A program made the position numbers and the translations under genes. Of a stretch of DNA of 64,000 nt, positions 2,686 through 56,747 are shown in pieces (the stretch's first letter is position 1; every line of letters starts with the position of its first letter). The notes beneath the pieces were generated by a model, which saw only the letters and a list, made by a program, of their open reading frames with translations, was not told the DNA's origin and did not search any database. The stretch is from IMG/VR virus record IMGVR_UViG_3300023094_000009, positions 77,285 to 141,284 of that record. One strand, written 5' to 3'. This DNA is from a virus.

Positions 2686-4851
2686 TTACAATGCACATTC
2701 GTTGAATTCTTTTTGGATATTTTCTAATTCCGATTGAGGGTACAAATTGGTCATCTCTAAATTCGTGTCATTAACTGATTGCTTTGTGGTGACTTCTAAT
2801 GTCTCCATATTCACTTCTTGTGGAAGGATAGGCTCAATACTCCTGACAGCTGAATTCAGTTTTTGTTCTGCTCGGTTTCTGTTGAAAGAGAAATTTGTAT
2901 TTGTGTCGAAATAAACATTATTTTCCTCGACTCTGATTTGACCATAGATAGAGCCATCCACTGAATCCAAAAGTTTTCGGTAAATATTCTCTCCTGTTCT
3001 CAGGTACAAGTCTGTATTTGGAGCTGTTATAATGAACTCTTCATCTGAAATAAAATTACCCATCTGCAACTCCTTTACAGAATCTGGGTTATTTAAAGCT
3101 TCTAAATCTTCATTAATGTAGTCGTCTGTCTCTGTCAAAGTCTTGATTATTCCCTCTTTCTTTAGCTTTGCGTAATCTCTCAACTCTTTTTCAAAGCGGA
3201 TTCCTGTTACATCGACATTTGGATTACTTAAAGTTATGTCTGCATCTGTTATTGAAAAATATTTCAATATTTTATTGTAGACAGGTGTGTTGTTTGACTT
3301 CTGCTCCAATTGGTAAGCATAAAAATCAGATACGAATTCTGTTTTAAGATATTCAGGATTCTCCGCAAAGCTGGCTTGATTTGTACCTAAAGGAGAGTGG
3401 TCAAAAATAACTTGATAAAGAGAGATTTCTTCACCAAAACTGGAATCAAAGCCTATTTCTCTTGACTGTATAAACCTTCTTATTCCCTCTCTTGTGAATA
3501 TTTCGTTTTCTGCAAGTTTTAGGTTTTCTGTGTCAAAATACTTTGGATCAATATTAATGGTGTTTTCAAGGTATGCCCTATAAACTGCATCATAAAGATT
3601 TTCCAGTGAAGTTCTTTGAACTCTTTGATATAGTCCTGAGTTGTCAATTCTTATTAGTCCTGAATTTTCGAATAGCGCATCCTCACTAAAGTTTGTATCT
3701 ACCCTTACAATGTTCAGGGGTTTGTATTTTTCTGGAAGTGTTTCAAGTACGCTGTTCATAGGAGGTACTATCAGGGAATCTTTAATTAAGGAAAAGCTGT
3801 TAATATTTTCGTCCACCGGATTATTCAGCATACCAACTGTTGATCTTACCAAGTCAATTACTCCTTGCCTGTTTGAAAAGTTTTGTTCTATTCCTACTAC
3901 ATCAACATTGTATTGGAGGAGTTCACTTGTAGTTTCTTTTAACAGTTTTTTAATTGCCGACTTTTTATCATCCCAAACTTCCTCTTCAATGCTCTCTAGG
4001 AAATCTAGAGTTTCCTCTAATTCAACCGTATCTACATTTGCCAGAATAGTATTTCTTGTTGTGGTGAAGGTAGAAAGATTCCTTGAAGTGAATGTATTCC
4101 CATCAAAAAATAAGACAGGTACGTTAGTCTTGTCTTGAAGATAGTTAGTGATGCGATTGATAAAACTGCTTGAATCCAGTAACGCTGAAAACGCTGAATC
4201 AGCAATTGCTTTAACTAAAGAAGGCTTGGAAAAATCTCCATTAGCTGTATCAGAAATTGTTTTTATAATGTCTTGTTCATTGACAAAAGGAAATGTTCCA
4301 AATATTGTTTTTTCGGCTTCTGTGTCCTTGAACTTTGTGGTAGAAGTGAAGATTCGTGTATTGTCTGAAAATACATCAAAGTCCAGATTATAAACATTCA
4401 TTCTGGCAAGCAGATCCCTCATCTTATTAGGGTTGAGTGCTTCAATTTCTTCTTGTGAATAAATCCCACTTTTCAGGAGTCTTTTCTCATCAATTTCAAA
4501 GTACCCGTTAGGTTGGAACAGGGAGTTCATTCTTGTTGTCAAAGTGAATAAACTATCCATGCCCAAATCATTCATCATCATTCTTGATTGCTGAAGCTCA
4601 GATTCGGATAGAGTTTGAGTATTGTCAAAGTTGTCAATGTAACGTAGAACTTCTTCTACGCTTGGTATCATATCATCACCAAACATTTCACTCCACCCAT
4701 CCGTCTGAGTAACTGCCCATATTCTGAGAGCTTGGTCTGTGTCGCCAGTGAAGTCTAATGCTTGTTGGTATAAAGGAGAAATGGAGCCTTCCATATCAAA
4801 TACAGAAACAGCTCCATTAGTATTTACAACTCGACAACTTTTTATCATCAT
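2686..4851 (-). CDS. Virion cargo protein (721 aa)
   Basis: Long acidic ORF coupled to the upstream gene (ATGA overlap); N-terminal domain resembles that of the 1-2265 protein. Confidence 0.75.
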   Translation of the reverse strand: MMIKSCRVVNTNGAVSVFDMEGSISPLYQQALDFTGDTDQALRIWAVTQTDGWSEMFGDDMIPSVEEVLRYIDNFDNTQTLSESELQQSRMMMNDLGMDSLFTLTTRMNSLFQPNGYFEIDEKRLLKSGIYSQEEIEALNPNKMRDLLARMNVYNLDFDVFSDNTRIFTSTTKFKDTEAEKTIFGTFPFVNEQDIIKTISDTANGDFSKPSLVKAIADSAFSALLDSSSFINRITNYLQDKTNVPVLFFDGNTFTSRNLSTFTTTRNTILANVDTVELEETLDFLESIEEEVWDDKKSAIKKLLKETTSELLQYNVDVVGIEQNFSNRQGVIDLVRSTVGMLNNPVDENINSFSLIKDSLIVPPMNSVLETLPEKYKPLNIVRVDTNFSEDALFENSGLIRIDNSGLYQRVQRTSLENLYDAVYRAYLENTINIDPKYFDTENLKLAENEIFTREGIRRFIQSREIGFDSSFGEEISLYQVIFDHSPLGTNQASFAENPEYLKTEFVSDFYAYQLEQKSNNTPVYNKILKYFSITDADITLSNPNVDVTGIRFEKELRDYAKLKKEGIIKTLTETDDYINEDLEALNNPDSVKELQMGNFISDEEFIITAPNTDLYLRTGENIYRKLLDSVDGSIYGQIRVEENNVYFDTNTNFSFNRNRAEQKLNSAVRSIEPILPQEVNMETLEVTTKQSVNDTNLEMTNLYPQSELENIQKEFNECAL

Positions 4852-7800
4852 TTACAAAAATTGAAATTTTTAAGTCCTGCTTTTTCATTTACAGTGTTGA
4901 CTGCTGATTGTGTTGCTGACTTTTTCTTTTTATCCTGTGTTTCGGGCGTTTCCTCGATAACAGTTTCAATTGAAGCCAAGTCAAACTTGATTTTAGGACT
5001 TACAAAAGGGGCAGACATGTCCAGACTTATTGTTACATTTCCTATCAACGCCTCTGCAATGGAAGTTCTAGAATCATTCCACCCATCTACACTGCTAAGA
5101 TACTGCTTTTCGCTCAATTGGGAAAATAAGTTGTCAAAAGCTTCACTGCTCAATCCGTTGCCTAAATCAATGAAGGCATTCCCTGTCTGTGTTACATCTA
5201 TTCCAGCTCTGGCTAAAATTGAATTAAGTCGTATGGCTTTCTCTGATCCTTCCAAAGTCTCATTGTTGAACAACCCTTGGAATTCATTCAAATCAATTGG
5301 AGAAGCATTCCTAGACACTCTCACAGGGAAAGCAATATGTTTCACTCCTTGACGGATAATGACAACAGGTGTTTTTGAACTTCTGTTTGCAATAACTGCT
5401 GTGTTGATGAAAGTCTTGTCTATACTGTCAATGCTTGTTCTAGTGTAAAGCTTTCCATTCTGTACATAACCAATATCAGCAATCTTGTCTAGGTCTTGCT
5501 CCCTGATTGGTCTTGATTGTCTTAGAACCACATCTTCATCAATGATTGTATTGAAGTTAGGAAGTCCTGCATAGACGTTTTTAACCTTGATTGTGTATTC
5601 AGAAGGGGTTTCGTTATTGTTCAATATTAAGCTCATAAGAAAAGCATCATCGTTTGCAATTTCCCTTCTTAGAGATGCAAACTTTGAATCATCGCCCTTG
5701 AATCTTCCTGTATCGTCTCCTTTTGTTCCTTTCAATACTTGAACGTTGGCTGTATCTGCATTCATTGCTGTTATTCTCAGCTCTGTTGCAATTCTTGTCC
5801 TTAGTTCAGGAGAGATTCTTAAAGTTGTCGATTGGCTTTCCTTTGCCTCAATCGTGTTTTCTGCTTTCTCCCTGATTGTCGCCGTCAAATCCCTTACTTG
5901 TTGCGTCTTCTTGTTTATCTTGGATTGGTTTGCTGTTGTCTTTGGAAGATTGTTCAGACTAAGAAGTTCAGCTTGTAATTTTATTACAGTTTTGTTTTTA
6001 TTAAGGTTTTTCTGGAATTCCAGTTCTATTGCGTTCTCTCTCTGCTCATCCGTTATGATACTATTTGCATTCTCTCTGATTATGGCATCAAAGATAGACC
6101 TATTCCAATCATTGTTTGGATCAACAGCTAGTGTGAGGATCTCTCCGTCCCTTACATTGAAAACATCTTCCCTGCTTATATCATTATCGTAATCTGAATT
6201 GAGCGGAACCCAAGATTGAACTCCATCCATGGAAGTTACACTTTTCCTGATCATGGAATAGTAGGTGGAAGTTTCATCCACTGAGCTGGACGTTATCCGA
6301 ATTTTACCTGCCTGATTTATCCTGTCCACAATTTCTCTTGTAATCTTGAAAGCTTTGGTTACAGGATCTTCTTCAACTTCCGTTTCCAGAATTTCCACTC
6401 CGGTTAATGCTATGAAGGCATCTAAAGTGTAGTTGTGAATACTTGTCAATACCACTCCATTCTCTAAAACTTCTTGTGAAACTGCTACTTCATAGTTCTG
6501 CCCAACAGCTAGATTCCTGTTTTGGGATTTATTGACTATTCGTGCATCTTCAATCACTTCTTCGTCTGTTGCTTCTACTACATCAGGAGCGAAATCCACA
6601 GGACTGTTTTCAAGAGCGACCAATTGTTTTATCAAGTCTGAAAGTTCAAGCTGATCCCTTGTTGTACCTAAAATAGATATCCACTGATTAACTTGATTCT
6701 CTAGAGTTTCAAATTCATCCTGTTCGTCCAGAGTTAATGTTCCTTGATTTACTCTTTTCTTTAGTAGCTTTAGATAGCTTTTATACCCTTCACTTTCCAA
6801 GAATTTAAAAGGAGTTCTGAGGTCATTGTTTTCAGTTTCTTTTGCTTCGATTTCTTGTCTTCTGCTCTCAATTTCACTTTCGGTGTTAATTGGAACTACG
6901 CTGTCAACTACCTCTACAACTTCTGAATTTGTGAATAACTCAACCATTTTAGGGTTGGCTCTAAATTCACTTCCATTTCTATCCATTACAATAGTATCAC
7001 CATCAATAGCTGTCACTGTTGAGATCCTACCAGTGACATCTCTTAGAGTCTGTCCAACTTGAACTTCACTTGCATTTTCAATAGCTTGAGGTTGTCCTAT
7101 TTGTGTTATCTCAAATGTGGCACTCCTTCCATCACGGCTAACCTCTGTCAATAAACCTTTATCAACTGCTCTTTGGTGCATTGCTTGTGCTCCATCTCCT
7201 GCCGAAACTGTAGAAATGGTTGTCACGCCTTGATTACTCATAAGCTCAATCAGAGCTTCAAACATAATGCTTCCAGAGCCTTGACCCACTTCATTGGCTG
7301 AAATACCGTCAATCCTGAATTCTGTTGGAGAAATTAGTACTCCCGAAAGAAGTCCCAATTCATTCCTGAACTCATACAATGTGCCATCTTCTACTTCTGT
7401 GGTTATTGGTTCTCCTAGAATATTAGATTGCTCCTCGTCTACTTGAGGAGTTACTATTCCATTTTCAATGTCAGAAATCTCTTTCTGCAATTCCTCTATT
7501 CGAGATTGGTTTTCTCGTATTTTTCTTAAATTTTCGAGCGTAGGCTTGTTTGTAATTATATCAATTTCGTTGGTGATATCTTCAATAAGACTGCTTAATT
7601 CCTCAATGTTGTTAATTGCGATTCGTGCATTTGTTGGTGCAGATTCTATGCTGTCACCTGTATCCTCTATAGTAACTTCTTCTAATGGTAAAATTGCTTG
7701 TTGGCTTTCTTCTACCCGTCTTTGTATTGCATCATAAGCAAACTGTGCACGAAGCATTGACTCAATCTTGAATTTTTCCCTTTCAGACAAGTCCGTGTTT

Positions 7801-10505
7801 TCACTCAATATTTGCTCAAACTGAGTGATAAGGTCATCTCCCCTGTATCCAATTTTTTCAAGGATTGGATTGATTGTTGCCTCATTTGCTCTCAGTTCTT
7901 TTTTCGCCTCTTCCGACATTGAATACGGAGAGCCAAGAATTGAACTTATTAGTCCTTTGCCTTCCCTTGAAGAATAGAAATTGGTTGCTGCCATTCTTCG
8001 TATGGTATCTGAAGCATTTGCTTCTAAAGCCAAATACCCGTCAAACTGATCTAAAAGAAATTCCAACTCCCTTGCTTCTTTTGTCTTTCCTGTAGCTCTT
8101 AGGGTTTCTACATATTGATTTAGACTTGCATATCTTTCTGATAGTTGATTGATAGTGGGAACTTGTGAAGTTTCACCATAAGATATTGTTTCCAGCCTCT
8201 TGTTCAGAGCAGTTTCTAAAACTTCCTGCCTTGCGGTGCTCTTTATTAGCTGGTTTGATAGAGCAACTTGTTTTTTAGATAACTCCTTTGCCAGCACTTC
8301 ATTGCCCTCAACTGATTGCATCTGTGCTCCAACTTCTGCAATTGCCGTAGTAAGCTCAGCTATTTCATTCTTAGTCTGTTCATATTCTGCATAGGCATTG
8401 TCTTGTTCATTCTGTAATTCATTGAAGAACTTTAAAGTACTGTAAGCACCTTCCTCTCCTGTCAAGGCAGAAATGTTGTCTCCGATTGTATTTACAATGT
8501 CCCCTGCCTTGAAACCTTGCATAAGAGCCAAAGTGGTAGCATCTTTCAATTCAATTACTTGCCCATTAGGTAGTCTGGAATTTTCAATACCTAAAGATTC
8601 AACTGTCTTGTTTGCTTTCTGGTACAATGTGTAGTCCCTCTGGAATCCAGCCTTTAGGGAATCTTTGTACTCCCGAACCTGTGCTTCACTTTCAAATCCC
8701 AAATTTCTTTGCTGTTCCTGCGTGAATTCCAATCCATCAACAGAAGCTTCGAAATCTGCAATTGTATCTGCATATCCCTTCAATCCTTCGTTTGCTTTTA
8801 TGAAGGAATAGTTAATTGCAGAATCTTCAAGTATAGTAAACTCTGCCTGATTGGTCTCCTTTGTTATCTGAAAATTACCAATTGAGTTTGCCCTGTTCAA
8901 GTCACGGAATTTTCCAATGTACTTGTTATATTCTTCAACAGACTTGTCAATGGAGTTCAATTGGGATGCGTAGCTGTTTTTACCTAGCCCCTGAACTCCA
9001 AAAGATGCGCCTTCCATTCCTCTTACACCTAAAGCGGTGAGAGGTTTTGAAATTGCTGCGCCTACATTTCCTCCTGCAAGTCCTATAATACCTCCAATAA
9101 CCACTTCCTTAAGTCCTTCCTTGGTTGTATATTGCTCCACAAAAGATTCTTGAAGTGCATTGGCAAAGGAGTGGATATCGGCTGTTTTAGGATCATATTT
9201 TGCTTCCAAATACTTGGACATTGTTTTACCAAAAACTCCTTGCAAGCCTTCTTCAACCACACCCTCCCTTAAAACAGGCTTGGAAACATTTACCGCTCTG
9301 CCCAGCATTCTCTGCGCCTTCGTACCTTTGCTGAACACCTTGGTTCCGTCTGCCATTGTTGTCACTGACCTTCCAAGAATACCATCTTCAATTCCCAGCT
9401 TTGGAAACTTGATCATTTTCAGATCAAACATTTTTGAATACATTGCAAAGTTTGTAACAGAAAGTAGTGCAGCATTTGCTCCAAATACCTTGTTGGCGGT
9501 ACTCTCTGCATCTTTCATGAAGGTTGTCAGGTCTTCTGCTGTAGGTAATTCTCCATAGGTGGTTTGATAATCACTGACATATTTATCTACAGCATCAGTG
9601 TAGCTGTGACGTGCTTCCATTCCGGCTTCAAATCCAACAGACTGACCCAAGAACCTTGCTGTCTTGAATACTTCCCCTGTACTTGCTCCTACATTTGTAG
9701 CTGTTGCAAATTTATCAATTGAACTTCTATTCAGTCTTCTTAGTGCGCGGGTTCCTATTTCCCTTTCTGCAACTCTTGTTGTTGCGGATATAAGGTCATC
9801 TGCATTATTTCTTGCTACATTTACAGCTATGTTATCGGCTGATTTTGCAAGTCCTTTAATTCCAAGTCTTGCTCCTGCTTTGGCAAATGAACTTGGTAAA
9901 GATGCACCACCAGATAAAATTGCAAGAGGAACTTCACTCAATACTGTTCCTGCCACAAAAGCAAGCCCATTTCCTACATCATTGAACCAGAAGTTAGCTG
10001 TACCCATTTGTCCCAAAAGACTTTTGGCTTTTTCTTCATTTGAATAATAGTGTGCAAAGTTTCTGTCCAATCTTTTTGATTGCTCGTCAAGAAAATTGGA
10101 TGCGTCATTATCCCACAAAGCAGAAAGCTCTCCCTGTGAGATTGCACTTCCTAGTCCATAGGTTACTGTCGCTAAAGCATCAGCTGCTATGAGTCCTGTT
10201 TTTCCTAGGAATTTCGTTACACCATTTCCTGCTTTTTCTCCCCAGCTTTGTTGTTGGGCTAGACGATCTTCATTATCAAAAGCTCCAAGATAGTTGTCAT
10301 ATTTCAAAGCGGAAACCCCGTACCTATCTGTTTCAGCAACAGCAGAGGTGGGAACATCATACTTCACATTCTCAATCCTACCCTTATCCCAAGGCATGTC
10401 AAGGACTCCTGAATATTGGAAACCTTGGGGTTTTACAGCACCTCTTGTACCTCTTGATTGCAGATCTGCTTGTAGCTTATTTAAAACTTCTTCGTTTGTT
10501 GGCAT
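4848..10505 (-). CDS. Giant virion cargo/ejection protein (1885 aa) with hydrophobic N-terminal segments, coiled coils and a GNAT-like insert
   Basis: Gly/Ala-rich hydrophobic stretches (GLAFVAGTVLSEVPLAILSGG; VVIGGIIGLAGGNVGAA), coiled coils, position downstream of tail genes as in crAss-like phages. Confidence 0.75.
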   Translation of the reverse strand: MPTNEEVLNKLQADLQSRGTRGAVKPQGFQYSGVLDMPWDKGRIENVKYDVPTSAVAETDRYGVSALKYDNYLGAFDNEDRLAQQQSWGEKAGNGVTKFLGKTGLIAADALATVTYGLGSAISQGELSALWDNDASNFLDEQSKRLDRNFAHYYSNEEKAKSLLGQMGTANFWFNDVGNGLAFVAGTVLSEVPLAILSGGASLPSSFAKAGARLGIKGLAKSADNIAVNVARNNADDLISATTRVAEREIGTRALRRLNRSSIDKFATATNVGASTGEVFKTARFLGQSVGFEAGMEARHSYTDAVDKYVSDYQTTYGELPTAEDLTTFMKDAESTANKVFGANAALLSVTNFAMYSKMFDLKMIKFPKLGIEDGILGRSVTTMADGTKVFSKGTKAQRMLGRAVNVSKPVLREGVVEEGLQGVFGKTMSKYLEAKYDPKTADIHSFANALQESFVEQYTTKEGLKEVVIGGIIGLAGGNVGAAISKPLTALGVRGMEGASFGVQGLGKNSYASQLNSIDKSVEEYNKYIGKFRDLNRANSIGNFQITKETNQAEFTILEDSAINYSFIKANEGLKGYADTIADFEASVDGLEFTQEQQRNLGFESEAQVREYKDSLKAGFQRDYTLYQKANKTVESLGIENSRLPNGQVIELKDATTLALMQGFKAGDIVNTIGDNISALTGEEGAYSTLKFFNELQNEQDNAYAEYEQTKNEIAELTTAIAEVGAQMQSVEGNEVLAKELSKKQVALSNQLIKSTARQEVLETALNKRLETISYGETSQVPTINQLSERYASLNQYVETLRATGKTKEARELEFLLDQFDGYLALEANASDTIRRMAATNFYSSREGKGLISSILGSPYSMSEEAKKELRANEATINPILEKIGYRGDDLITQFEQILSENTDLSEREKFKIESMLRAQFAYDAIQRRVEESQQAILPLEEVTIEDTGDSIESAPTNARIAINNIEELSSLIEDITNEIDIITNKPTLENLRKIRENQSRIEELQKEISDIENGIVTPQVDEEQSNILGEPITTEVEDGTLYEFRNELGLLSGVLISPTEFRIDGISANEVGQGSGSIMFEALIELMSNQGVTTISTVSAGDGAQAMHQRAVDKGLLTEVSRDGRSATFEITQIGQPQAIENASEVQVGQTLRDVTGRISTVTAIDGDTIVMDRNGSEFRANPKMVELFTNSEVVEVVDSVVPINTESEIESRRQEIEAKETENNDLRTPFKFLESEGYKSYLKLLKKRVNQGTLTLDEQDEFETLENQVNQWISILGTTRDQLELSDLIKQLVALENSPVDFAPDVVEATDEEVIEDARIVNKSQNRNLAVGQNYEVAVSQEVLENGVVLTSIHNYTLDAFIALTGVEILETEVEEDPVTKAFKITREIVDRINQAGKIRITSSSVDETSTYYSMIRKSVTSMDGVQSWVPLNSDYDNDISREDVFNVRDGEILTLAVDPNNDWNRSIFDAIIRENANSIITDEQRENAIELEFQKNLNKNKTVIKLQAELLSLNNLPKTTANQSKINKKTQQVRDLTATIREKAENTIEAKESQSTTLRISPELRTRIATELRITAMNADTANVQVLKGTKGDDTGRFKGDDSKFASLRREIANDDAFLMSLILNNNETPSEYTIKVKNVYAGLPNFNTIIDEDVVLRQSRPIREQDLDKIADIGYVQNGKLYTRTSIDSIDKTFINTAVIANRSSKTPVVIIRQGVKHIAFPVRVSRNASPIDLNEFQGLFNNETLEGSEKAIRLNSILARAGIDVTQTGNAFIDLGNGLSSEAFDNLFSQLSEKQYLSSVDGWNDSRTSIAEALIGNVTISLDMSAPFVSPKIKFDLASIETVIEETPETQDKKKKSATQSAVNTVNEKAGLKNFNFCK

Positions 10506-10514
10506 AGTTATTTT

Positions 10515-10544
10515 CCCTTTGGCATTAAATCACTAAAATGTACC
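10515..10544 (+). repeat. Left terminal inverted repeat
   Basis: CCCTTTGGCATTAAATCACTAAAATGTACC versus reverse complement of right end CCCTTTGGCACTAATATACTAAAAAGCACC. Confidence 0.75.
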
Positions 10545-10588
10545 AGACAAAATGCTGATTTTTAGTCTTTTATGCGTATTTTTTTGAA

Positions 10589-10596
10589 TAAAGTTA
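10589..10596 (-). promoter_or_regulatory. Candidate outward-facing promoter (TAACTTTA) near the element left end
   Basis: TAnnTTTA variant also precedes genes at 19337 and 33177; points toward the 1885-aa gene. Confidence 0.35.
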
Positions 10597-10602
10597 TTAA
10601 TT

Positions 10603-11013
10603 TTATCTGATAAATCTGCCAAAAAAGACATTTCTTTCAGAGTTTATCGGATGTTTTTTTATCCATTCATCATATGTTTCTAACGAATCAAGTCTTTTTT
10701 CGAACTTGTCCATCCCTGAAGTGACAAATTCTTCTGAGTAATCCTGAAGGCATACATTATCTTCTCCCTGAATAAGCATGTCCATGCTGTCAACCTTGAA
10801 TTTGTAAGATTCTCCCAAGTAATGAAATTCGTATTCTGTCAGTTCTTTATATTTAACCTTGTTTTCTATTTCCCGCGCCAGAGAAGAAAGTTTGTCAGCA
10901 TCGTAACTTTCCTGTTTGCTTCTATGTAGTATTGTTCTTAAAATGCTACTTTTAAGTCCAGATTCCCGATCTTTGAACTGTCGGCGTACACTAACTGTAA
11001 ATTTATTTTCCAT
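10603..11013 (-). CDS. Hypothetical passenger protein (136 aa)
   Basis: ORF with natural charged composition inside the element. Confidence 0.65.
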   Translation of the reverse strand: MENKFTVSVRRQFKDRESGLKSSILRTILHRSKQESYDADKLSSLAREIENKVKYKELTEYEFHYLGESYKFKVDSMDMLIQGEDNVCLQDYSEEFVTSGMDKFEKRLDSLETYDEWIKKHPINSERNVFFGRFIR

Positions 11014-11311
11014 GAATGATTATGTTAAAGAAAGAGATGTTGAAAAAGCCACTGGCCTGAGAGCTATACACTATTCCTATCCTTCTGGACAAGGGCTCTT
11101 ATACCTAACTGGTTATTTCATTGTAGAGAGATTTAAGATCTCCTCTAAGCTAAGTCTGGATTATAAGCTGACTCAAATTCTCGATGTTGTTGATTATATC
11201 GAAACAGGTGTAGTTAAAAGTACAAAGGTATATTCTTTAGAAGGCGATGAACTGCTATTGTCATCTCAGAATCCCCTTCCACTATTACCTGAATATGTTG
11301 TAAAAGAATAG
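11012..11311 (+). CDS. Hypothetical passenger protein (99 aa, MNDYVKERD...)
   Basis: ATG at 11012 within track ORF 10916-11311; the upstream part is the antisense shadow of the 136-aa gene. Confidence 0.5.
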   Translation: MNDYVKERDVEKATGLRAIHYSYPSGQGLLYLTGYFIVERFKISSKLSLDYKLTQILDVVDYIETGVVKSTKVYSLEGDELLLSSQNPLPLLPEYVVKE

Positions 11312-11338
11312 CAACTACATTCTGTTGTCTTAAGGCGG

Positions 11339-11388
11339 GGTGTGAGATCACTTAAATGTACCAGCTAAGATACTGGTTTTTAGTTTTT
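11339..11388 (+). repeat. Internal direct copy of the element left end with conserved hairpin
   Basis: 11349-11388 CACTTAAATGTACCAGCTAAGATACTGGTTTTTAGTTTTT versus 10531-10570 CACTAAAATGTACCAGACAAAATGCTGATTTTTAGTCTTT (33/40). Confidence 0.75.
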
Positions 11389-12331
11389 AAGATTTATTCT
11401 GAATAGTGCTATTTTTTAACCAAATTTTGAAATGATTACTGCCAATGAATTTAAGGACTGTACTTTTGTCAAACAGTATAGTCAATAAGTGGTATGCTGT
11501 TAGTACATATTCTTGAAGATCTTGAGAGTCCTCTAAATCTTCAACACAAAGGCCTTGGCTTTTAGCCTCGATCCGATCAATCCTTCTTCCATGACTTTTC
11601 TTTTTGTGACCATCTACTGAACCACGGCTAAAGTGTGCAGAGACAGCTTCGCTTTTCTTTTTAGCTCCTGCTATCCCCTTAAATACATAACTCTCCAACC
11701 AATCTGCTACAATTTGTTCAGAATATTCAACAGCGTTTTGGGACTCTTGAAGCAATGCTGGCCCCATTGTTGAGAGTGTGGGTGCCCATAAGTGAGCTTG
11801 AACGCTATTTTCTAAAATATCCTGCTTTGCTCTTTCAAACTGATCAATTATGGCTAAAGCAGAAACAAAGCGTCCGTTAAGGTTCATTTGTGGATCAATT
11901 GGCCCTAATTGGCTTTGCCTTCCCATAATGATTCTATCACAAGAAAGACTTATCATAGTACCTGCGGACATCGCATAAGTAGGTATAATTACTTCAATAT
12001 CCTTAAATTTGGATCTAAGATACGAAACAATAGTTTCTGTCGCATTTGTAACTCCTCCAGGTGTATGGAGTAGTATGGTTAGACCTTTTGTGAAATCCAT
12101 TCCATGTATGACGGACATAAAGCCATTTATGTCCTCTGATGTAATTGATAAAGTCCCTTGATTTGCTGTGGGTTTTTGGAGAAAAGCTGAAGCATAAAAA
12201 ATCACATTCCTACCTTCCCTAAGTGTAGAGATTTTGTTAAGCTCTTTTACAAGGTTATCAACTAACCAGTTGACCACGACGTCTTTATCTAAAGTTTCTA
12301 CCTTGGAAACTAAATCTGTCCATGAAGGCAT
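11387..12331 (-). CDS. SDH-family (Clp/crotonase-fold, S49-like) serine protease
   Basis: Motifs LHTPGG, AMSAGTMI (catalytic Ser), LGPIDPQ (Asp), SHGRRI (His). Confidence 0.88.
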   Translation of the reverse strand: MPSWTDLVSKVETLDKDVVVNWLVDNLVKELNKISTLREGRNVIFYASAFLQKPTANQGTLSITSEDINGFMSVIHGMDFTKGLTILLHTPGGVTNATETIVSYLRSKFKDIEVIIPTYAMSAGTMISLSCDRIIMGRQSQLGPIDPQMNLNGRFVSALAIIDQFERAKQDILENSVQAHLWAPTLSTMGPALLQESQNAVEYSEQIVADWLESYVFKGIAGAKKKSEAVSAHFSRGSVDGHKKKSHGRRIDRIEAKSQGLCVEDLEDSQDLQEYVLTAYHLLTILFDKSTVLKFIGSNHFKIWLKNSTIQNKS

Positions 12332-12525
12332 TAGCGTAGTGTGATATTAAGTGGATAACTAGCGTCTCTGTACAACGATTCATCTTGTATACATTCCTTT
12401 GTAATTTGTAACAGATCATAGGAATTTAATTCAAGATATACATTGTATTGAGCTGATACCTCATTTAGTATCACTGTGATATCTTTATTTTTGGGATATT
12501 CTTTATTTGATTCGAGTGAATTCAT
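12331..12525 (-). CDS. Small protein translationally coupled to the SDH protease (64 aa)
   Basis: TAATG stop/start overlap with the protease gene. Confidence 0.65.
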   Translation of the reverse strand: MNSLESNKEYPKNKDITVILNEVSAQYNVYLELNSYDLLQITKECIQDESLYRDASYPLNITLR

Positions 12526-12610
12526 GTTATTCAGTGTGTTGGTTTCTGCAAAGAAACAATTTTTAAGTTATTGTTGGACTACCACTCATCACTAATTAAT
12601 GATATTTCTA

Positions 12611-12745
12611 TTACTTCTCTTTCTTAGGCTTCACCACAACCTTCTTCAGAACCTCGCTAAAGCCTTCCTTCAGTTCTTTGTCACCATACTTCTTGGTGAG
12701 CTGTTCGTCCGATAAAGCTTCTTTCTTTTTCTTCTTTTCTGCCAT
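12611..12745 (-). CDS. Small basic protein (44 aa) downstream of the transposase
   Basis: Hand-translated MAEKKKKKEALSDEQLTKKYGDKELKEGFSEVLKKVVVKPKKEK; TAAATTTA box a few nt upstream. Confidence 0.5.
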   Translation of the reverse strand: MAEKKKKKEALSDEQLTKKYGDKELKEGFSEVLKKVVVKPKKEK

Positions 12746-12851
12746 AGGGCTTAAATTTACTGAATCTGTTGCTTGACAGACATGTATTTAACTTCCATTT
12801 AACCTTTTAAAGGTACGGATAGTCCTTGTTTATTCCAAATAAATGGCTTTG

Positions 12852-13814
12852 TTATACATTTTTTGAAATGAGGTCTTTGTATTTCAGTCTTTTTTGTGCC
12901 ATTTTCACGAGAGAGTTATTAAACTTTTGCCCTGCGTTGTCTTCGCGCCCGTTGAACCGGAAAGACATCTCATCACAATACATCTGAAGATGCTTGCGGG
13001 AAACATGGAAATAGGTTCCCTTGATGCTCCTCTTTAAATGACTCCAGAAATTTTCTACATTGTTGCTTGAGAAACCGCTTTCCGTGGCATACTGTTTCAG
13101 GTTGTGGTTTACATACTGGTGGTCATAGTCTGCATTAAGTCCTGTGTATCCCATCCATTCATCTGTTACGATTGTAGCTCCGGCTTGCACCAGTTCTTTC
13201 ACCAGTGGCTTCAAAGTTTCTCCCTGCGTATTTGGAATAACTCTTGTATATATCTTGTTGTCCTGTATCATTCCAAACACTGGAGTTTTATCCTTGTAGG
13301 ATCTTCCTTGCGAATTTTTGACTTTCTTGTTTTTGTGGCGATTTTTGTTGCTGCCTCCTACAAAGCTCTCATCCATTGTAGCAACAGAAAGAGACTTTTC
13401 AGGAATAGCCTGAACATAGGATGCACGAAGCCTGCTTAACATGAACCAAGCAGTCTTTTGTGTAACTCCAAGGTCTTCTGCAAGCTGATAAGAACTGATT
13501 CCACGCTTGTGAGAAGCGAAAATAAATATGGCGATAAACCATGTCCTTAGAGGAATCGGGGAACTTTCAAATATGGTTCCCACTCTTATGGTGTATCTCT
13601 TTTTACATCCTCCGCATTTGTATAATCCGTTGAACTCTCCTTTTACATTCAGTTTGTATTGCTTTGTTTCCTTGCAATGAGGACACACTGGATTACCTTG
13701 CCAGATTGTGTTCTCAAGATATTCCCTGCAAGATGTTTCATCTGGCAATTGCTTCAGCATTTGAACTAATGATTTGAACTCTAGATTATACATAACTTCA
13801 AGTTTTAAATACAC
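12852..13814 (-). CDS. IS1595-family (ISXO2-like) DDE transposase; likely start ATG 13793
   Basis: Zn ribbon CPHC...CGGC, HTH GISSYQLAEDLGVTQKTAWFML, catalytic MDES, VTDE, NNVENFWS and YCDEMSFRFN motifs. Confidence 0.93.
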   Translation of the reverse strand: MYLKLEVMYNLEFKSLVQMLKQLPDETSCREYLENTIWQGNPVCPHCKETKQYKLNVKGEFNGLYKCGGCKKRYTIRVGTIFESSPIPLRTWFIAIFIFASHKRGISSYQLAEDLGVTQKTAWFMLSRLRASYVQAIPEKSLSVATMDESFVGGSNKNRHKNKKVKNSQGRSYKDKTPVFGMIQDNKIYTRVIPNTQGETLKPLVKELVQAGATIVTDEWMGYTGLNADYDHQYVNHNLKQYATESGFSSNNVENFWSHLKRSIKGTYFHVSRKHLQMYCDEMSFRFNGREDNAGQKFNNSLVKMAQKRLKYKDLISKNV

Positions 13815-13949
13815 TGAGAAGTTACGATATTTTACTGGAGTTCCCTAGCTTTTTAACATTAGTTACGTGTAATTATAATAAATTGTTATTTATCCACATT
13901 TCGTTTTTGATTAATATTCTGTCATATCTTTGATGAATAAATCATCCGA

Positions 13950-14546
13950 ATGTGTTATCAAGTAAGACAAACTTCAAGTAAAAAGGATATTGAAAGAAGG
14001 TTTAGTGCCGATTTCCTTACTGTTATTCCTGATTATCAGCGTGAAGAAGTGAGTGGTTTCACGCATCCAAAAATGCCTGTTATTGCTAACAGCATGGTTG
14101 ACAAAATACAGCTTTTTCAATGGGGACTGATTCCGCAGAACCAGAAAAATACACTGAATGCAAGAATTGAAACAATAAGGGAAAAACCGTCCTTCAGGAA
14201 TTTTGTAAACCAGAAATGTCTGATACTTGTTAATGGCTTCTATGAGTGGAAGCATGTACCGGGAGAGAGGCATGACAGACATAAATACCTTCTTTCGTTG
14301 CCTGACAACGGATCATTTGCTCTTGCGGGATTGTGGAGCGAATGGGAATTCCTGAATGGAGAGAAATATAGAACCTTTACCGTCATTACTACAGAAGCCC
14401 AAGGTATAATGAGAGAAATACACAATACTAAGCTCAGGATGCCTGTTATACTCAAAAGGGAAATTGAAATGGATTGGCTTATGGGTAAGCGTACAGCTAA
14501 GCTTCATACGGATTTGGTTGCTACCAAGATTTTCCCTTTATTCTAG
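13950..14546 (+). CDS. SOS response-associated peptidase (SRAP/YedK/HMCES family)
   Basis: Catalytic Cys2 (MCY), WGLIP, NARIET, GFYEWK, IHN..RMPVIL; TATCTTTG promoter at 13925-13932. Confidence 0.92.
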   Translation: MCYQVRQTSSKKDIERRFSADFLTVIPDYQREEVSGFTHPKMPVIANSMVDKIQLFQWGLIPQNQKNTLNARIETIREKPSFRNFVNQKCLILVNGFYEWKHVPGERHDRHKYLLSLPDNGSFALAGLWSEWEFLNGEKYRTFTVITTEAQGIMREIHNTKLRMPVILKREIEMDWLMGKRTAKLHTDLVATKIFPLF

Positions 14547-14773
14547 TTAAACAAATCTTTAAGCTCTACGTCCAGCGCTTTTGATATTTTGATAAGAGTC
14601 TTTACTGTTGGATTCTGTTTTCCGCGTTCAATCTCACCTAACTTGGATAATGGTACACCAGAATCAATGGATAAGTCAAGTTGCCTCATATCTTTTTCCA
14701 TACGAAGAAACTTAATCTTGTTCCCAAGATCTAACAAGTAGTGGTCATCATTCATTTGGGTACAATAAAGCAT
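14543..14773 (-). CDS. XRE-family HTH transcriptional regulator
   Basis: LGNKIKFLRMEKDMRQLDLS...LGEIERGKQNPTVKTLIKISKAL is a classic HTH_3 pattern. Confidence 0.92.
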   Translation of the reverse strand: MLYCTQMNDDHYLLDLGNKIKFLRMEKDMRQLDLSIDSGVPLSKLGEIERGKQNPTVKTLIKISKALDVELKDLFN

Positions 14774-14793
14774 ATTTAGTTGAAAGACAACAA

Positions 14794-14888
14794 CCCTTAT
14801 AAGGAATATAGGCTAATTTATATCCATTATTTTTAACACATAAAATAGTAATTTGTTTTATTTTTAACTATTAACACCCTTATAAGGG
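14794..14888. promoter_or_regulatory. Two palindromic operator-like sites CCCTTATAAGG(G/A)
   Basis: 14794-14805 and 14877-14888 in the divergent intergenic region; the second lies just upstream of TAACTTTG (14898-14905). Confidence 0.7.
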
Positions 14889-14951
14889 ATATTTGTCTAA
14901 CTTTGTATAGGTTTGACATACTTCAGTGTTAGGCTTTTATTGCCACTTATT

Positions 14952-15191
14952 ATGAAAAAGCTACTTATTATCACTTCAGTTTCTTTATTAATCCTCTCTT
15001 CCTGCAACAAGGACTACAATTGTGTCTGCTCGCTTTATAACGAACAAGGGCAAACCGTAGCAACTGAAGAATACAATTCAACTCAGTACAAGAAAAAGGA
15101 TAAAGACGAGGCAGAGAAGAGTTGCAAGGATCGCGATGTTGCGCCTAATGGGGCGTTCGGTGAAATGGGTCGTAAATGTGAGCTGAGATGA
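14952..15191 (+). CDS. Small lipoprotein
   Basis: ATG 14952: MKKLLIITSVSLLILSS-C lipobox; four more Cys in the mature part. Confidence 0.8.
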   Translation: MKKLLIITSVSLLILSSCNKDYNCVCSLYNEQGQTVATEEYNSTQYKKKDKDEAEKSCKDRDVAPNGAFGEMGRKCELR

Positions 15192-15760
15192 CATCTACAA
15201 AAACTATCAGAAATGATTTTACAAACGAGGAAAAACTTGCTTGTCTTACAGTACTTCACCTACTGATTGAATCAAGTGAGCCTCGATTTAAAAATACAAG
15301 AAAAGGTGTGCTTATTCATAATGCCAAACTATTTGGTGTGTATGACTTTATGTTAGAAGAATACATAGAAAATGTGACTTCAGAATCCTTGAAGAAAGAC
15401 TTATCATTAAGCAACACAAAAGTGGAGTATCTTATAGCTATGACTTATGAGATGCTAAACTCAGCAGGGTTTACCAAAAACGATATAGTGAACGCAGAAA
15501 ATCTATTCCTTAGAGCTGTAGGTGTAACTCCTGATGAACTTCATGCATCTTTAGAAAGAGTTAGAATTTTTACTAAAAAGTTTAACGAAAGGACTCATGC
15601 AAGTCAAGTACATCCTTCAAACAATGCTGTAAGTCGTACTTATCAAAGAATGGCAATTCAAGCTCAAGATCCTAATCAAAATAGCTTTTCTTTGAACAAC
15701 ATTGTATTCATTATTTTCACCGCTTTAGCTATTTTGGGTCTTGTAAGTCTGTGTAGCTAA
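15188..15760 (+). CDS. Membrane-anchored protein, possible TerB-like helical domain
   Basis: Helical pattern reminiscent of TerB/DjlA-N; C-terminal hydrophobic helix IVFIIFTALAILGLVSL. Confidence 0.55.
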   Translation: MTSTKTIRNDFTNEEKLACLTVLHLLIESSEPRFKNTRKGVLIHNAKLFGVYDFMLEEYIENVTSESLKKDLSLSNTKVEYLIAMTYEMLNSAGFTKNDIVNAENLFLRAVGVTPDELHASLERVRIFTKKFNERTHASQVHPSNNAVSRTYQRMAIQAQDPNQNSFSLNNIVFIIFTALAILGLVSLCS

Positions 15761-15797
15761 AAGCTTATTTTTGTGATAACTCTAAATAATAATCGCT

Positions 15798-16112
15798 ATG
15801 AAAGAAGAAAATTTGAAAACACTCAATGAAAAATACAACACTATTTTAAACGATTTTAAAACCTTCGCTGAAAATTATGAAGGTAAAAATCTTAGTGAAG
15901 ATTTCCAATCTGAGTTTAAGGAGCGGTACGACGATATTAGTTCTAGTTTTTCAGATATTATACGCAGACAAGTTAAAGTATCAAAAGAGGAGGGTGTTCA
16001 TGTTATAGAAAACCTTCCAATCTTAAAAAACATACACAGATTAAATAACATTCTTATGATGACATACGAAGCTTATTTAAAGGTCGCCTTCCATGAGAAG
16101 GCTGTAAACTAA
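15798..16112 (+). CDS. Hypothetical helical protein (104 aa)
   Basis: ORF with TATTTTTG promoter at 15766-15773. Confidence 0.65.
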   Translation: MKEENLKTLNEKYNTILNDFKTFAENYEGKNLSEDFQSEFKERYDDISSSFSDIIRRQVKVSKEEGVHVIENLPILKNIHRLNNILMMTYEAYLKVAFHEKAVN

Positions 16113-16304
16113 CTTAGGTGTCATAAAAACTCTCATAGGACTGTCTGATTCAATAAGCATCCTGTTCAAGCTAAATACCATATCTTGAATGCGTGTGTGC
16201 ATCAAGGTTTCTGGTGAATGTTTTGATTGTTGTTTTTTGATAAACTCTAAATGTTCTTCTGATTCGATTCCAACTGTGAATCTTTCAATATATTTTTCTT
16301 CCAT
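16077..16304 (-). CDS. Hypothetical protein (~75 aa), convergently overlapping the 104-aa gene
   Basis: ATG 16304 (MEEKYIERF...) preceded by A-rich leader; 36-bp tail-to-tail overlap. Confidence 0.45.
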   Translation of the reverse strand: MEEKYIERFTVGIESEEHLEFIKKQQSKHSPETLMHTRIQDMVFSLNRMLIESDSPMRVFMTPKLVYSLLMEGDL

Positions 16305-16348
16305 TTTTCGGCGAAATTCCGGCAAAAAACTGAAAAAACAACTTACGC

Positions 16349-16378
16349 GGTGCTTTTTAGTATATTAGTGCCAAAGGG
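16349..16378 (-). repeat. Right terminal inverted repeat
   Basis: GGTGCTTTTTAGTATATTAGTGCCAAAGGG, inverse of 10515-10544. Confidence 0.75.
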
Positions 16379-16399
16379 TTAATATAAATTTTGTTGATG

Positions 16400-16407
16400 C
16401 AAAGATA
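16400..16407 (-). promoter_or_regulatory. -7 promoter box TATCTTTG, probably the native promoter of the 1885-aa gene
   Basis: Perfect consensus, 21 bp outside the right inverted repeat, pointing into the element. Confidence 0.65.
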
Positions 16408-16449
16408 TGTATTTATCTTTGATGTGGTTGTTAATGAAATGTTATTTGT

Positions 16450-19317
16450 TTACTCTACTATAAATAAATTTTCCAAATACTTAGAAAATAATTCTTCTTT
16501 AATTTGCTTCGACTTTCCGTATATTTCAGGAACGTCCCCACTGACGGATAGAATCTCTTTACCTGTATCACCAATAGAAATTTCTTGTCCTTGGCTGTTT
16601 TTCATTACATAATGGTAAGTTTCACTACCTTCGATAGGCTTTACGTAAAACTTAGTATTACCGTCATAGAAGTTGTAAACGAGTGTATTGAGTTGTTGTA
16701 AGGCTTGTGGATTATTTGATGCTTGTCTCTGTGCCTCTTGAATATTATTAGTCAACAATGCGCTTGGCTTAGAATTCCTGCTGTCGCCTTTTGGGTAATT
16801 GGTGTACCCACTGGCACCCAACTCAATACTACCTGCCCTCTCTTTAAGAGTTGTGTTATATGGAGAGTTGTAATAGTCTGCTGCATTTATACCTAATTCC
16901 TTTGAAGTAAACATCAATGGAGTTGTACCATCTTTCATTGTAACTTTTTGCTTAACAGTCTTTTTTTCTTGACCTGTTCCAGTGGTTACATCTGTCCACA
17001 AAGTCCAATTATCCGTAACTCTCCCATCTTTTATTTCTGGATATAATTGAGGGATTCCTTTCGTATCAATTGCGTATTTGGTGGATATTAGTTTTTCTGT
17101 CTTAGATCCTGGTTGTATGTTTAGCGGTGTGTAACTTAATTCTACCGATTTATTAGCCATAGCCACAGAGGTCAGTCTGTTTACTGCTGACAATCTGGTA
17201 TTTAGTGTACCTCCTACATCACCCCATCCATCAGTCCACCCCAGACCTGATAGTTCTGTGTCTTGCGTGAATAGTGTTCCATACTCAGGATTATCACCAT
17301 TATCTCCTATCATATCTCCTCCGTACCCGTTCAAGCCAGATTCTTCTTTGGGAGGTAAGTATCTGCTTACAGCTGGCATTGTATTTACAGCTTTAACTCC
17401 TAATTTTTTTACAACCTCCTCCTGTAAAGAAGCATACATCTGTTGCTTTTGCCATGTCCCCGCTTTTACACCTTTATCTGATATAATACCTTTGGTTGTA
17501 TAAGTTTTCAAGGTCATTTCCTCTTCAGGAGTTAATTTCAATCCTTTGGTGGATTTGTACATGAGAAGTTTGTAATTGGATGTTTTTGCGCCTGGCATTA
17601 TTCCATCCTTATATATGTAATTTCCATTAGAGGATTTTTCAAAATAGAAATTCTCTTTGGTAAAGTTCAATCTTCTTTGCTGATCCCCACTTTCACTATA
17701 ATGCTTAACTAAATCAGCTGTTGTTGCATCTATCAGTTTAGTATATTCCTCCCTTGCCTTTCTTGTAGGGGCAGAACCATCTATCATTGTTTTTTTGAAG
17801 TTATCCAATGCAGTATAGACCTGTGCCCTATTCTGGTCATTTATGGTTATTTTTTTACCTGCAATTTCTATTTCTTGCAGAGTTCCAATATCTACATTTG
17901 TAAGATCCTGTACTAATTTCGCGGTGTTACCTTTACCCATAATGCCTCCAACCAAGTCATTCACGCCTTTGACAGCTTCTCTTTGAAATTCTGCCTCTCG
18001 TTGAGTTTGACTGTATTCCCCCCTTTCTTCACTTCCTATCACTTCAGAGGCTCCATATTGTATGTCACCTAAGTTTACTCCTGTGGCATTAGGATCAGCA
18101 AGAGTTCCGTCTTGCATTGCTTTTATCATATTAAGCTCTAGTTGTTGAGATCGTATCAACAATCCTTCTCTGCCCTGTTGCTCCATTTCTTGGGCATGTC
18201 TGACACTCTCTTCATACTTTCGTATATTGAGTTTTACATCTTCAACCTTAGTTTCCGTTATTCGGGGAGGTTGATAATTCAATGAAGTGAGATTTTCAAA
18301 TTCTACTTCCCTGTTAAATGTTTTGTATACATTTTGATATTTGACTGGATCTACAAATCCATTTTGGTCTATTACTTCACTGTCAAAGTTCCTTGTCTTG
18401 TTATTTTCAAGGGTCTGTGTCAATTCAGCTATTCTGCTCTGTACTTCTTGCTTGTCCCTTCCTTCAGGTAGTTTTCTCAACTCGCCTTCTAAAATATCTT
18501 TTTCCTGAGAAAGGCTTTTATTCAGATTATCATAGAGGCTGTTATAGTTATTTCGTAGGTTATCTACCACCATAGGATTGCTTTCATCGCCATACTTAGC
18601 CCAAGCATTTATATCCATTTGTCTTACCCCATCTTCTCCTATCTGAGCTAAAACAGCTTGTTTTAATCGGTTTTTATCTGTTGTTCCTTCATAGGTGTTT
18701 ACATAGTCGAAATAATAACCTCCATCTGCTCTTTGTACATATTTTGCATTGATACCTAAATTCTTCAAAGATTCTTGGAAGCTTTTATCCATCAATTTCT
18801 TAGGGTTATCAGAATAGGCAATAAAACCACCTCCGCCATTATATACAGCATTGGGATCTGTTGAATTCATGTAATCGTTCCATCCCTGTGAGGCATAAGC
18901 AAAGTTGACATCACTGTAACTTCCATCATTCTTTTTTCTTGCTTCCTGCCATTGAGGGACTTCCCCTTTATTTCTTAAAGCGGTTGATGCTACACCATTA
19001 TAAACCCTTTCATCAATACTTTCTTTCAGTTTTGACGTGAGTTGGTTCATGAGGGCTGGGTTTGATATGTCTCCTCCAGCAAATTGGTTTACGATATTGA
19101 CAGTTTGTTGTAGCCTTTCTTGGAAGTATTGTTTATCTATTGGTCTGGCAACTTCAATATCCAAGGCTAATTCTTCTTGCAAAGAAAGGAGTTTTTCTCT
19201 ATTTTCATTAACCTGTCCCTGCATTGAAGCCATCCCAAGCCTTAAAAGCTCCTTGTTACCAAAATGGAATAGCGGAATGCCACTGTAATTATTTAATGTT
19301 GAAACACTACTTGCCAT
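16450..19317 (-). CDS. Virion cargo protein (955 aa)
   Basis: Cys-free, helical N-terminus, position among crAss-like internal proteins. Confidence 0.75.
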   Translation of the reverse strand: MASSVSTLNNYSGIPLFHFGNKELLRLGMASMQGQVNENREKLLSLQEELALDIEVARPIDKQYFQERLQQTVNIVNQFAGGDISNPALMNQLTSKLKESIDERVYNGVASTALRNKGEVPQWQEARKKNDGSYSDVNFAYASQGWNDYMNSTDPNAVYNGGGGFIAYSDNPKKLMDKSFQESLKNLGINAKYVQRADGGYYFDYVNTYEGTTDKNRLKQAVLAQIGEDGVRQMDINAWAKYGDESNPMVVDNLRNNYNSLYDNLNKSLSQEKDILEGELRKLPEGRDKQEVQSRIAELTQTLENNKTRNFDSEVIDQNGFVDPVKYQNVYKTFNREVEFENLTSLNYQPPRITETKVEDVKLNIRKYEESVRHAQEMEQQGREGLLIRSQQLELNMIKAMQDGTLADPNATGVNLGDIQYGASEVIGSEERGEYSQTQREAEFQREAVKGVNDLVGGIMGKGNTAKLVQDLTNVDIGTLQEIEIAGKKITINDQNRAQVYTALDNFKKTMIDGSAPTRKAREEYTKLIDATTADLVKHYSESGDQQRRLNFTKENFYFEKSSNGNYIYKDGIMPGAKTSNYKLLMYKSTKGLKLTPEEEMTLKTYTTKGIISDKGVKAGTWQKQQMYASLQEEVVKKLGVKAVNTMPAVSRYLPPKEESGLNGYGGDMIGDNGDNPEYGTLFTQDTELSGLGWTDGWGDVGGTLNTRLSAVNRLTSVAMANKSVELSYTPLNIQPGSKTEKLISTKYAIDTKGIPQLYPEIKDGRVTDNWTLWTDVTTGTGQEKKTVKQKVTMKDGTTPLMFTSKELGINAADYYNSPYNTTLKERAGSIELGASGYTNYPKGDSRNSKPSALLTNNIQEAQRQASNNPQALQQLNTLVYNFYDGNTKFYVKPIEGSETYHYVMKNSQGQEISIGDTGKEILSVSGDVPEIYGKSKQIKEELFSKYLENLFIVE

Positions 19318-56600: not shown

Positions 56601-56747
56601 CCCGTTCTTTATCTTGTCATATTCATTTAAGTAGAATTGTATTGTTGAAGGTTGTTGTTCCCATAGTTGTTTTCTTGCATCCCATTTAGGAATGTCTCTT
56701 GGGTTCATGTTTATGAAGAGTTCCTTTGATTGTTTGAATGTGTCCAT
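53691..56747 (-). CDS. terL: Terminase large subunit containing an intein
   Basis: Walker A GTRGFAKS, Walker B YVMDE, nuclease GADDY and NYDR motifs. Confidence 0.9.
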   Translation of the reverse strand: MDTFKQSKELFINMNPRDIPKWDARKQLWEQQPSTIQFYLNEYDKIKNGINLGGYQMSGWMYFHINFFKTNIINPHTLTKSIMTAPLDDNTYYLMECYKEAVRDGLGFCMWGTRGFAKSTFIGSMKHWTHLTKDGTSMLVYKEGNDLSSIRDMVTTSMSNIHPAFKLNILRGSGDWKDTDVVFGNSLQNNEEFIKSQLRIINADGGAEKASEKGAGLTPIGYVMDEALAFDSILHSREKEITMEGISIGDEIYGDDGELTTVLDKINVGVVPMYEFTLSDGRKVESSADHLWTVYNKSNTLRTLTTQELIDKKTKSNPFYIPLCEPIIREHKDFLVDPYILGYHLGDGDSKGGRFCTKDNEVIEEYSKYYEIVDRGDNLHYYAKKLVVDLRKLGIYGNKHIPDEYLYGSVKQRTDLLAGLLDSDGHVNVATSENGKLFSSTVFTNTNEKIVEGFKQLVYSLGMTCSIHKRQRTRKGNLNKVSYGVTVWSDNTELFKIERKKNLIVPKIFNFKRVSIKEIKAVGEKQAYCIKVDNKSKLFLTTDCIVTHNCGKYNGIPILESAKVSFKYQNKSLFTYILAGTGGNETLSEGAKTMLCNPKDYDLLVMNWDLLNNMVPDEHITWKEDIGRKFGIFVPGQMSYRENEPKLLKTFGEFTKNQFKSEELNNLPINVTDWKATKEAFQHRLDNASDETVKTKQRMYYPMCIDDSFLTSKVNPFNSEAITKKLRELKEHPKYTLVDIEVDHKNDKIETTFQSDKPIAERGYKKNISAPFMIFEGFPTNIPPKYKFVSGADDYKSADATTESLGALYVLQRRTLNMPLERIVACLTERPPTHREMHSKWEKLIRATQAICNLEAADMSFVSYLEDIIKVDAYQYLHPFINPHGDLSTKKKSVTASNYKFGTYPHQWNVKILLETVIQYTQQTFTIGFNPETGLPIVNTGIDLIDDPMLLQEMLDFKFGTGNYDRIFAFGWALLLARHMDSKNIMPEDQHVEKYNRDMFSKPRTKHSNFAKSKAKNF
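55101..56069 (-). mobile_element. Class-3 intein (323 aa) with LAGLIDADG homing endonuclease
   Basis: DE|ALAFDS...SSADHLW...AYCIKV...VTHN|C; LGYHLGDG and LAGLLDSDG motifs. Confidence 0.9.

Follow-up and report, generated by a model that had tools for sequence, protein, structure and literature searches.

The window analyzed here is a stretch of 64,000 nucleotides of virus DNA and corresponds to bases 77285–141284 of a record of 141,284 bp. The record represents a large Bacteroidota phage distantly related to csAssE-Sib and to the Cellulophaga phages phi17:2 and phi4:1, and the terminase, tail fibre, and virion proteins are encoded on its minus strand. Two neighboring virion genes, for proteins of 1885 and 955 amino acids, are separated in the window by positions 10506–16449. 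In phi17:2 and csAssE-Sib, a ~975-aa gene ends within the homologue of the 1885-aa gene, and the N-terminus of the product of this ~975-aa gene is colinear in alignment with the 955-aa protein of the window. In two metagenomic relatives that are closer (63% and 58% identity), 3–5 nt separate the stop codon from the start of the next gene. Positions 10506–16449 were assigned as DNA inserted into the virion gene block because the homologues of the flanking genes overlap or lie this close together in the relatives. The insert splits the giant 1885-aa virion gene from its upstream neighbor, and expression of this gene must therefore now rely on read-through or on a promoter within the element. The features of the locus are presented in Table 1.

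Table 1. Genes, repeats, and flanks at the locus (positions in the window; matrix rank refers to a position matrix built from the ends of related elements)
Feature	Positions	Strand	Remarks
1885-aa virion gene	4848–10505		right-end side of the element, beyond end B
12-nt flank outside the right tip	10509–10520	.	inverted complement, 10/12, of 16373–16384
End B, outer right terminal inverted repeat, 24 bp	10521–10544	+	tip starts GGCA; matrix rank 2; functional-looking partner of C
Hairpin B	10532–10566	-	formed between the inner half of the repeat and subterminal bases: 7-bp outer stem, 3-nt bulge, 5-bp inner stem, 8-nt loop
136-aa ORFan gene	10603–11013	-	one homologue, 69% identity, on a 520-bp contig
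99-aa ORFan gene	11012–11311	+	frame and residues conserved on the opposite strand of contig L095; called as a gene in an identical assembly
X, decayed left-end-like repeat	11314–11337	-	15/24 matches to B; matrix rank 300
End A, inner same-orientation copy of the right terminal repeat	11339–11362	+	degenerate tip; 19/24 to B, 13/24 to C; matrix rank 115
Hairpin A	11350–11384	-	plus-strand inner stem 11360–11377 and T-rich tail terminator-like, 49 nt past the 99-aa gene
ClpP-like SDH-type serine protease, cargo	11387–12331	-	PF01972, E 3.5e-18; phrog_11747
64-aa ORF, cargo	12331–12525	-	end overlaps the start of the protease gene
44-aa lysine-rich ORF	12611–12745	-	downstream of the transposase gene; tblastn matches in L006, L007, L014
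IS1595-family DDE transposase, N-terminal zinc ribbon	12852–13814	-	PF12762, E 1.2e-42, 146 bits; PF12760, 45 bits
SRAP (SOS-response-associated peptidase) family protein, cargo	13950–14546	+	PF02586, E 9.7e-41
XRE-type helix-turn-helix regulator	14543–14773	-	PF01381; homologues in L006, L007, L009, L030, L050
Further cargo ORFs	14913–16304		92 aa (lipoprotein-like, homologue in L006), 190 aa, and 104 aa on +; ~75 aa on -
Hairpin C, weak left-end counterpart	16329–16361	+	only the A/T outer stem kept; as DNA no better than shuffles
End C, left terminal inverted repeat	16349–16372	-	matrix rank 1; 18/24 matches to B
77-nt flank, end C to the stop of the 955-aa virion gene	16373–16449	.	conserved in the closest related phage
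955-aa virion protein gene	16450–19317		left-end side of the element, beyond end C

The IS1595-family transposase is the only one of its kind in the phage, and all of the invariant columns of a 27-member alignment are present in its sequence. The other ORFs of the insert, about 10 within 10521–16372, have no part in transposition and are passenger genes. The XRE, 44-aa, and 92-aa genes recur beside related transposases; the protease gene, the SRAP gene, and the two ORFan genes do not.

The ORFan genes occupy the 768 bp between two repeated sites. This segment had been described in the initial annotation as a cassette with the 136-aa gene only, and the divergent 99-aa gene had been missed. The start codons of the two genes overlap on opposite strands within four bases (11011–11014). 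Both genes are conserved on a single contig of 520 bp (L095), the only homologue among 5.8 billion proteins, and this contig does not include the ends of an element. A 3-nt insertion separates the two start codons in L095. Pfam, PHROGs, PADLOC, and the Atlas were searched for the function of the two genes and gave no family, defence-system, or structural lead.

The insertion site was compared with that of the closest related phage (L096:11908–11998), in which the homologue of the 955-aa protein is 74% identical. The 77-nt flank beyond end C is common to both phages, and after it, at the same junction, the relative has an IS1595-type end that has diverged. The contig of the relative stops 19 nt into this end, so the comparison covers only that part of its element. 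The shared position of these ends makes the insertion seem old; it seems that an IS1595-type element has been present there since before the divergence of the two phages, or that this position is a hot spot. There is no polymorphism to exploit, because another assembly of the phage (L181) agrees with the window at 100% over the whole locus. No close viral loci were obtained with the protease and the 955-aa protein as queries, and blastn with the region as query returned no match in the phage collection. The virion block of these phages accommodates more than one kind of mobile element. In related phages (L097:4741–5940, L098, and L099) an IS605 OrfB/TnpB (Cas12f-like) gene is located between virion genes, two genes upstream of the homologue of the 955-aa gene.

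Terminal repeats of the inserted element

The initial annotation called attention to two direct copies of a hairpin-forming site on the minus strand. Both copies were recovered without mismatches at 10532–10566 and 11350–11384 with a degenerate pattern of 35 nt, which gave 0 matches in 100 shuffles and only these 2 matches in the whole 141,284-bp record. The copies were extended to 42 nt by a repeat search (10529–10570 and 11347–11388; 83% identity; spacing of 818 bp), and the shared unit measured from the tip of the element has 11 differences over 50 nt. As had been claimed, one copy reaches into the stop codon of the SDH-protease gene (ORF end at 11387) and the other is found 32–36 nt past the 136-aa ORF (end at 10603). 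The proposed stem, 3-nt bulge, and 8-nt loop of variable sequence were confirmed as well. Exact-pattern scans of viral and metagenome collections for the hairpin and for the end gave chance matches only; the match in L003 is located within a coding region and that in L094 is eukaryote-like, and both were discarded.

The sites are homologous to one another and represent right ends of IS1595-family transporter IS (tIS), each composed of a 24-bp terminal inverted repeat and ~26 subterminal bases. This identity of the repeat had not been recognized in the initial annotation, and neither an inverted third copy (16349–16372) nor a decayed end-like sequence (11314–11337) had been noted. The outer and inner right-end copies are denoted as B and A, the inverted third copy at the left end as C, and the decayed sequence as X. 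The outer pair, B and C, bounds an element of 5,852 bp (10521–16372) with one intact DDE transposase gene and ~10 passenger genes. The whole insert is bracketed by an inverted repeat of 36 nt (10509–10544 versus 16349–16384) that was obtained in the repeat search.

A position matrix built from the ends of relatives only was used to rank the 282,522 positions of the phage. End C ranks 1st and end B ranks 2nd, and A and X follow at ranks 115 and 300, respectively. End B is nearer to the family consensus than A, and its tip is homologous to the tip of an element found in two other contigs (L007 and L008), where the tip was defined by comparison and not by experiment.

No 8-bp target duplication was found around B–C, A–C, or B–X at any of the tip offsets tried. 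A single 6/8 match, asymmetric by 1 nt, was attributed to chance. The 12-nt flanks outside the two tips are inverted complements of one another, for which possible origins are a palindromic target, a repeat that is longer in this lineage, or the remnant of an older element. Since the insertion seems old, a decayed target duplication is possible, but age would not account for the palindromic flanks.

The element agrees with the tIS of the IS1595 family in its single zinc-ribbon DDE transposase, in repeats that start with GG, in the passengers held inside, and in size (2–8 kb), and 8-bp duplications are found in its relatives. The terminal inverted repeats of the family, ~20–40 bp, are matched by B and C (24 bp, 18/24). 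This copy is unlike the known tIS in its location in a phage virion block, in its palindromic flanks without a recognizable target duplication, and in an extra internal right end that abuts a decayed left end. The IS1595-family tIS include the ISfinder subgroups with a plus sign and ISNha5. What appeared to be a new cassette system is thus a documented case of a known element type with exactly defined ends, and the locus belongs to ordinary transposon biology.

Related elements

The ends of the family were defined with related loci. Two contigs (L007 and L008) have different left flanks and are 100% identical from exactly the start of a 24-nt tip that is homologous to 10521–10544, and an inverted copy of this tip is present at the other end of the element. 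An 8-bp target duplication is found at L007:2125–2161 and 6873–6904, where the five extra bases before the left tip repeat the first five bases of the tip. The same element, at 100% identity, is located in a phage context in L007 and beside a T9SS-type S8 peptidase gene in L008. The element of L009 has inverted 24-bp ends with a perfect 8-bp target duplication at both tips.

Loci with a transposase homologue were then surveyed for inverted pairs of 24-mers with a perfect direct repeat of 8 bp at their outer edges. Such ends were found in ~50 of the 80 viral loci (L014–L093) and in 45 of the 80 loci from Bacteroidota genomes (L100–L179). The related elements have sizes of 1.8–6 kb, relative to ~0.95 kb for the transposase gene. 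The group is assigned as a widespread set of IS1595-family IS with passenger genes, that is, transporter IS, because these sizes are well above that of the transposase gene. The target duplications of the related elements are A/T-rich, and an XRE gene is often present.

According to the literature, transporter IS are found in the IS1595 and IS66 families only. In the literature searched, no description was found of cargo-carrying IS1595-family elements as common in Bacteroidota and their phages.

The initial annotation raised the idea of arrays of the site with variable genes between them. None of the 97 related elements with defined ends has an array of more than two sites; the most that is found is two normal ends and one stray copy, and the single copy of the right end in related elements goes against a cassette system. 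A covariance model of the three ends was used to search 2.4 Mb around 166 related transposase genes and returned no further convincing sites, the two weak matches being generic hairpins and not ends.

Inner junction and origin of the extra end

The differences between A and B are concentrated in two places. Four of the first 8 tip bases differ, as do 4 of the 8 loop bases, and elsewhere there are 3 differences in 34 positions (p = 0.002). The tip of A is faced by the tip of X across 1 bp, and X starts 2 nt past the stop codon of the 99-aa gene. A match of 15/24 to B is reached at only 71 of the 282,522 positions (2.5e-4). If a separate element had been positioned beside A, its opposite end would be expected at 11312–11338, and X is found there in the predicted orientation. 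The probability of finding X by chance is ~0.003 with ~13 offsets allowed; the match is weak (15/24), and X was found after the hypothesis was formed. A facing, tip-to-tip pair of ends is present in 1 of the 97 elements with defined ends, and the same scan detected none in the other 96. A partner end and a target duplication for A were looked for within the element and were not found.

From this arrangement we propose, with moderate confidence, that the element arose by the fusion of two transposon units positioned end to end, that is, by accretion of units and not by site-specific capture of a cassette. In this reading the additional inner end is most likely the point of attachment of a small element with two genes. 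The first unit would be an autonomous element of 5,034 bp (11339–16372) with ends A and C. The second would be a transposase-less mini-element of 817 bp (10521–11337) with ends B and X and the two divergent ORFan genes. The two units would have been located end to end in the same orientation before they fused. After joining, the transposase would act on B and C as the outermost ends, and the inner ends A and X, thereby released from selection, would have decayed. The repeat body and the stems would be kept, probably as transposase-binding sequence, with drift in the tip and loop. Nested ends left by successive insertions had been offered as a second reading in the initial annotation, and this reading fits the data: both sites are terminal inverted repeats of the IS1595 family, with a decayed opposite end abutting the inner one.

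The proposed second unit resembles MITE-like elements and abutted IS copies in having no transposase, inverted end-like bounds, and a tip 1 bp from that of its neighbor. It is unlike them in that the 817-bp unit carries two genes and has one badly decayed end (X), and neither a second copy nor a duplication was found. No free-standing copy of the mini-element was found either.

An alternative route to the same order of parts is end skipping as in ISEcp1. The ancestral element would have ended at A, directly after the last cargo gene, and the transposase, in an earlier location, would have used a B-like sequence 818 bp further on and mobilized the two genes. The order of left end, transposase, own right end, captured DNA, and second right end is that expected for one-ended capture with a surrogate end, which is a route for an IS to gain adjacent genes and is known for ISEcp1 and ISCR. 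In those systems, however, the outer end is a poor surrogate, whereas B is the second-best match to the family matrix in the genome, is far better than A, and is fully homologous to it, with the similarity continuing 26 nt past the terminal repeat into the subterminal sequence. The remnant of opposite polarity at the inner junction, X, is not predicted by end skipping. ISEcp1-like units are also flanked by a target duplication, and none is found here. We regard this origin as unlikely.

Changes within a resident element were also considered. The right end may have been duplicated in tandem and the two genes inserted later, or related elements with different cargo may have recombined in co-infecting phages. 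A tandem pair of right ends is known from L033 (11824–11886), where the two ends are 39 nt apart with no gene between them; other extra ends in the family are rare and amount to a single marginal match inside an element plus a few marginal ones with 6 mismatches. Long residence, as suggested by the IS1595-type end that the closest related phage has at this junction, is consistent with such changes, as is a cargo that differs from that of L006, the nearest relative of the transposase. The facing of A by X is left unexplained by these events, and no trace of a recombination partner was found, and we judge them to be somewhat less probable than capture by end skipping.

The hairpins at the sites could have another meaning, and their structure was analyzed at the level of RNA, DNA, and the family. 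The RNA folding of the minus strand gave −12.8 and −9.5 kcal/mol for the two copies (z of −2.9 and −2.6, respectively). The folding as single-stranded DNA is weak, with −4.6 and −4.3 kcal/mol (z of −1.6 and −1.95). A heptamer within the repeat's inner half pairs with its complement ~20 nt further in to give the outer stem, and this pairing is kept at all three ends; the inner stem is present in A and B only. None of the 12 pairs changes on both sides, which is equal to the result for shuffled controls, although the comparison of three sequences has low power. The complementarity between the repeat body and subterminal sequence was measured for 98 distinct family ends, and the mean longest stem is 4.72 versus 4.43 ± 0.08 for the permutation control, a small excess. 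No bias for inward-facing T-runs (terminators) was detected at the family ends.

These results suggest that the hairpin would be a by-product of the sequence of the end itself, through the complementarity between a subterminal heptamer and the inner half of the repeat. As judged from sequence comparison, the conservation of the stems in A and B reflects common descent and probably a constraint on the transposase-binding sequence, and not selection for structure. The hairpin of copy A may serve as a secondary terminator for the 99-aa gene.

The reading of the sites as regulatory hairpins of the phage that flank a moron, either as terminators, as 5′ leaders, or as promoter-plus-stem-loops (PeSLs), is improbable. 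Copy A does score as terminator-like on the plus strand 49 nt past the 99-aa gene, and copy B is located in the leader of the 1885-aa gene. The PeSL cassettes of T4-type phages are also comparable, with short repeated structured motifs that flank small, shuffled accessory ORFs and can give small circles (PMC2839356, PMC4122927). PeSLs, however, occur in many copies per genome at the boundaries of early genes and are not transposon ends, whereas the motif has three copies in 141 kb here, all of them ends of one element, and the other intergenic regions are without it. The weak folding as DNA, which for end C is no better than that of shuffles, the lack of compensatory changes, and the lack of a T-run bias in the family argue against a regulatory role as well.

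The integron-like system suggested in the initial annotation, in which a DDE transposase would capture gene-plus-hairpin cassettes at a fixed site, is rejected: a gene unit followed by an imperfect palindrome with a variable center, twice in a row, does recall attC cassettes, but there is no integrase, attI, or array beyond two sites, the palindrome is part of the terminal repeat of the transposon itself, repeated sites enclosing variable genes were found in none of the related elements, and no match to the tyrosine recombinase family PF00589 was found in the whole phage with a search in which all of the control genomes match.

The fusion of two units has a possible general implication. Transporter IS might gain passengers by the tip-to-tip docking of a mini-element, followed by decay of the inner ends to leave one larger cargo transposon, in this case within a phage virion operon. 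We put this route forward tentatively, since the fusion-type junction is a single example among the 97 elements. The abutted, decayed inner ends would be one concrete example of how transporter IS may gain passenger genes. If the route were general, elements of this type would grow by modular accretion and would shuttle ORFan genes between Bacteroidota and their phages.

Two minor observations were made on genes outside of the element. In L007 (7458–10398) a GIY-YIG/NUMOD homing-endonuclease-like gene is located between two pieces of a ribonucleotide reductase gene. The large terminase subunit encoded in the window (53691–56747) is unusually long at 1018 amino acids, and terminase families match two separate stretches of the protein (residues ~241–550 and 569–1002).
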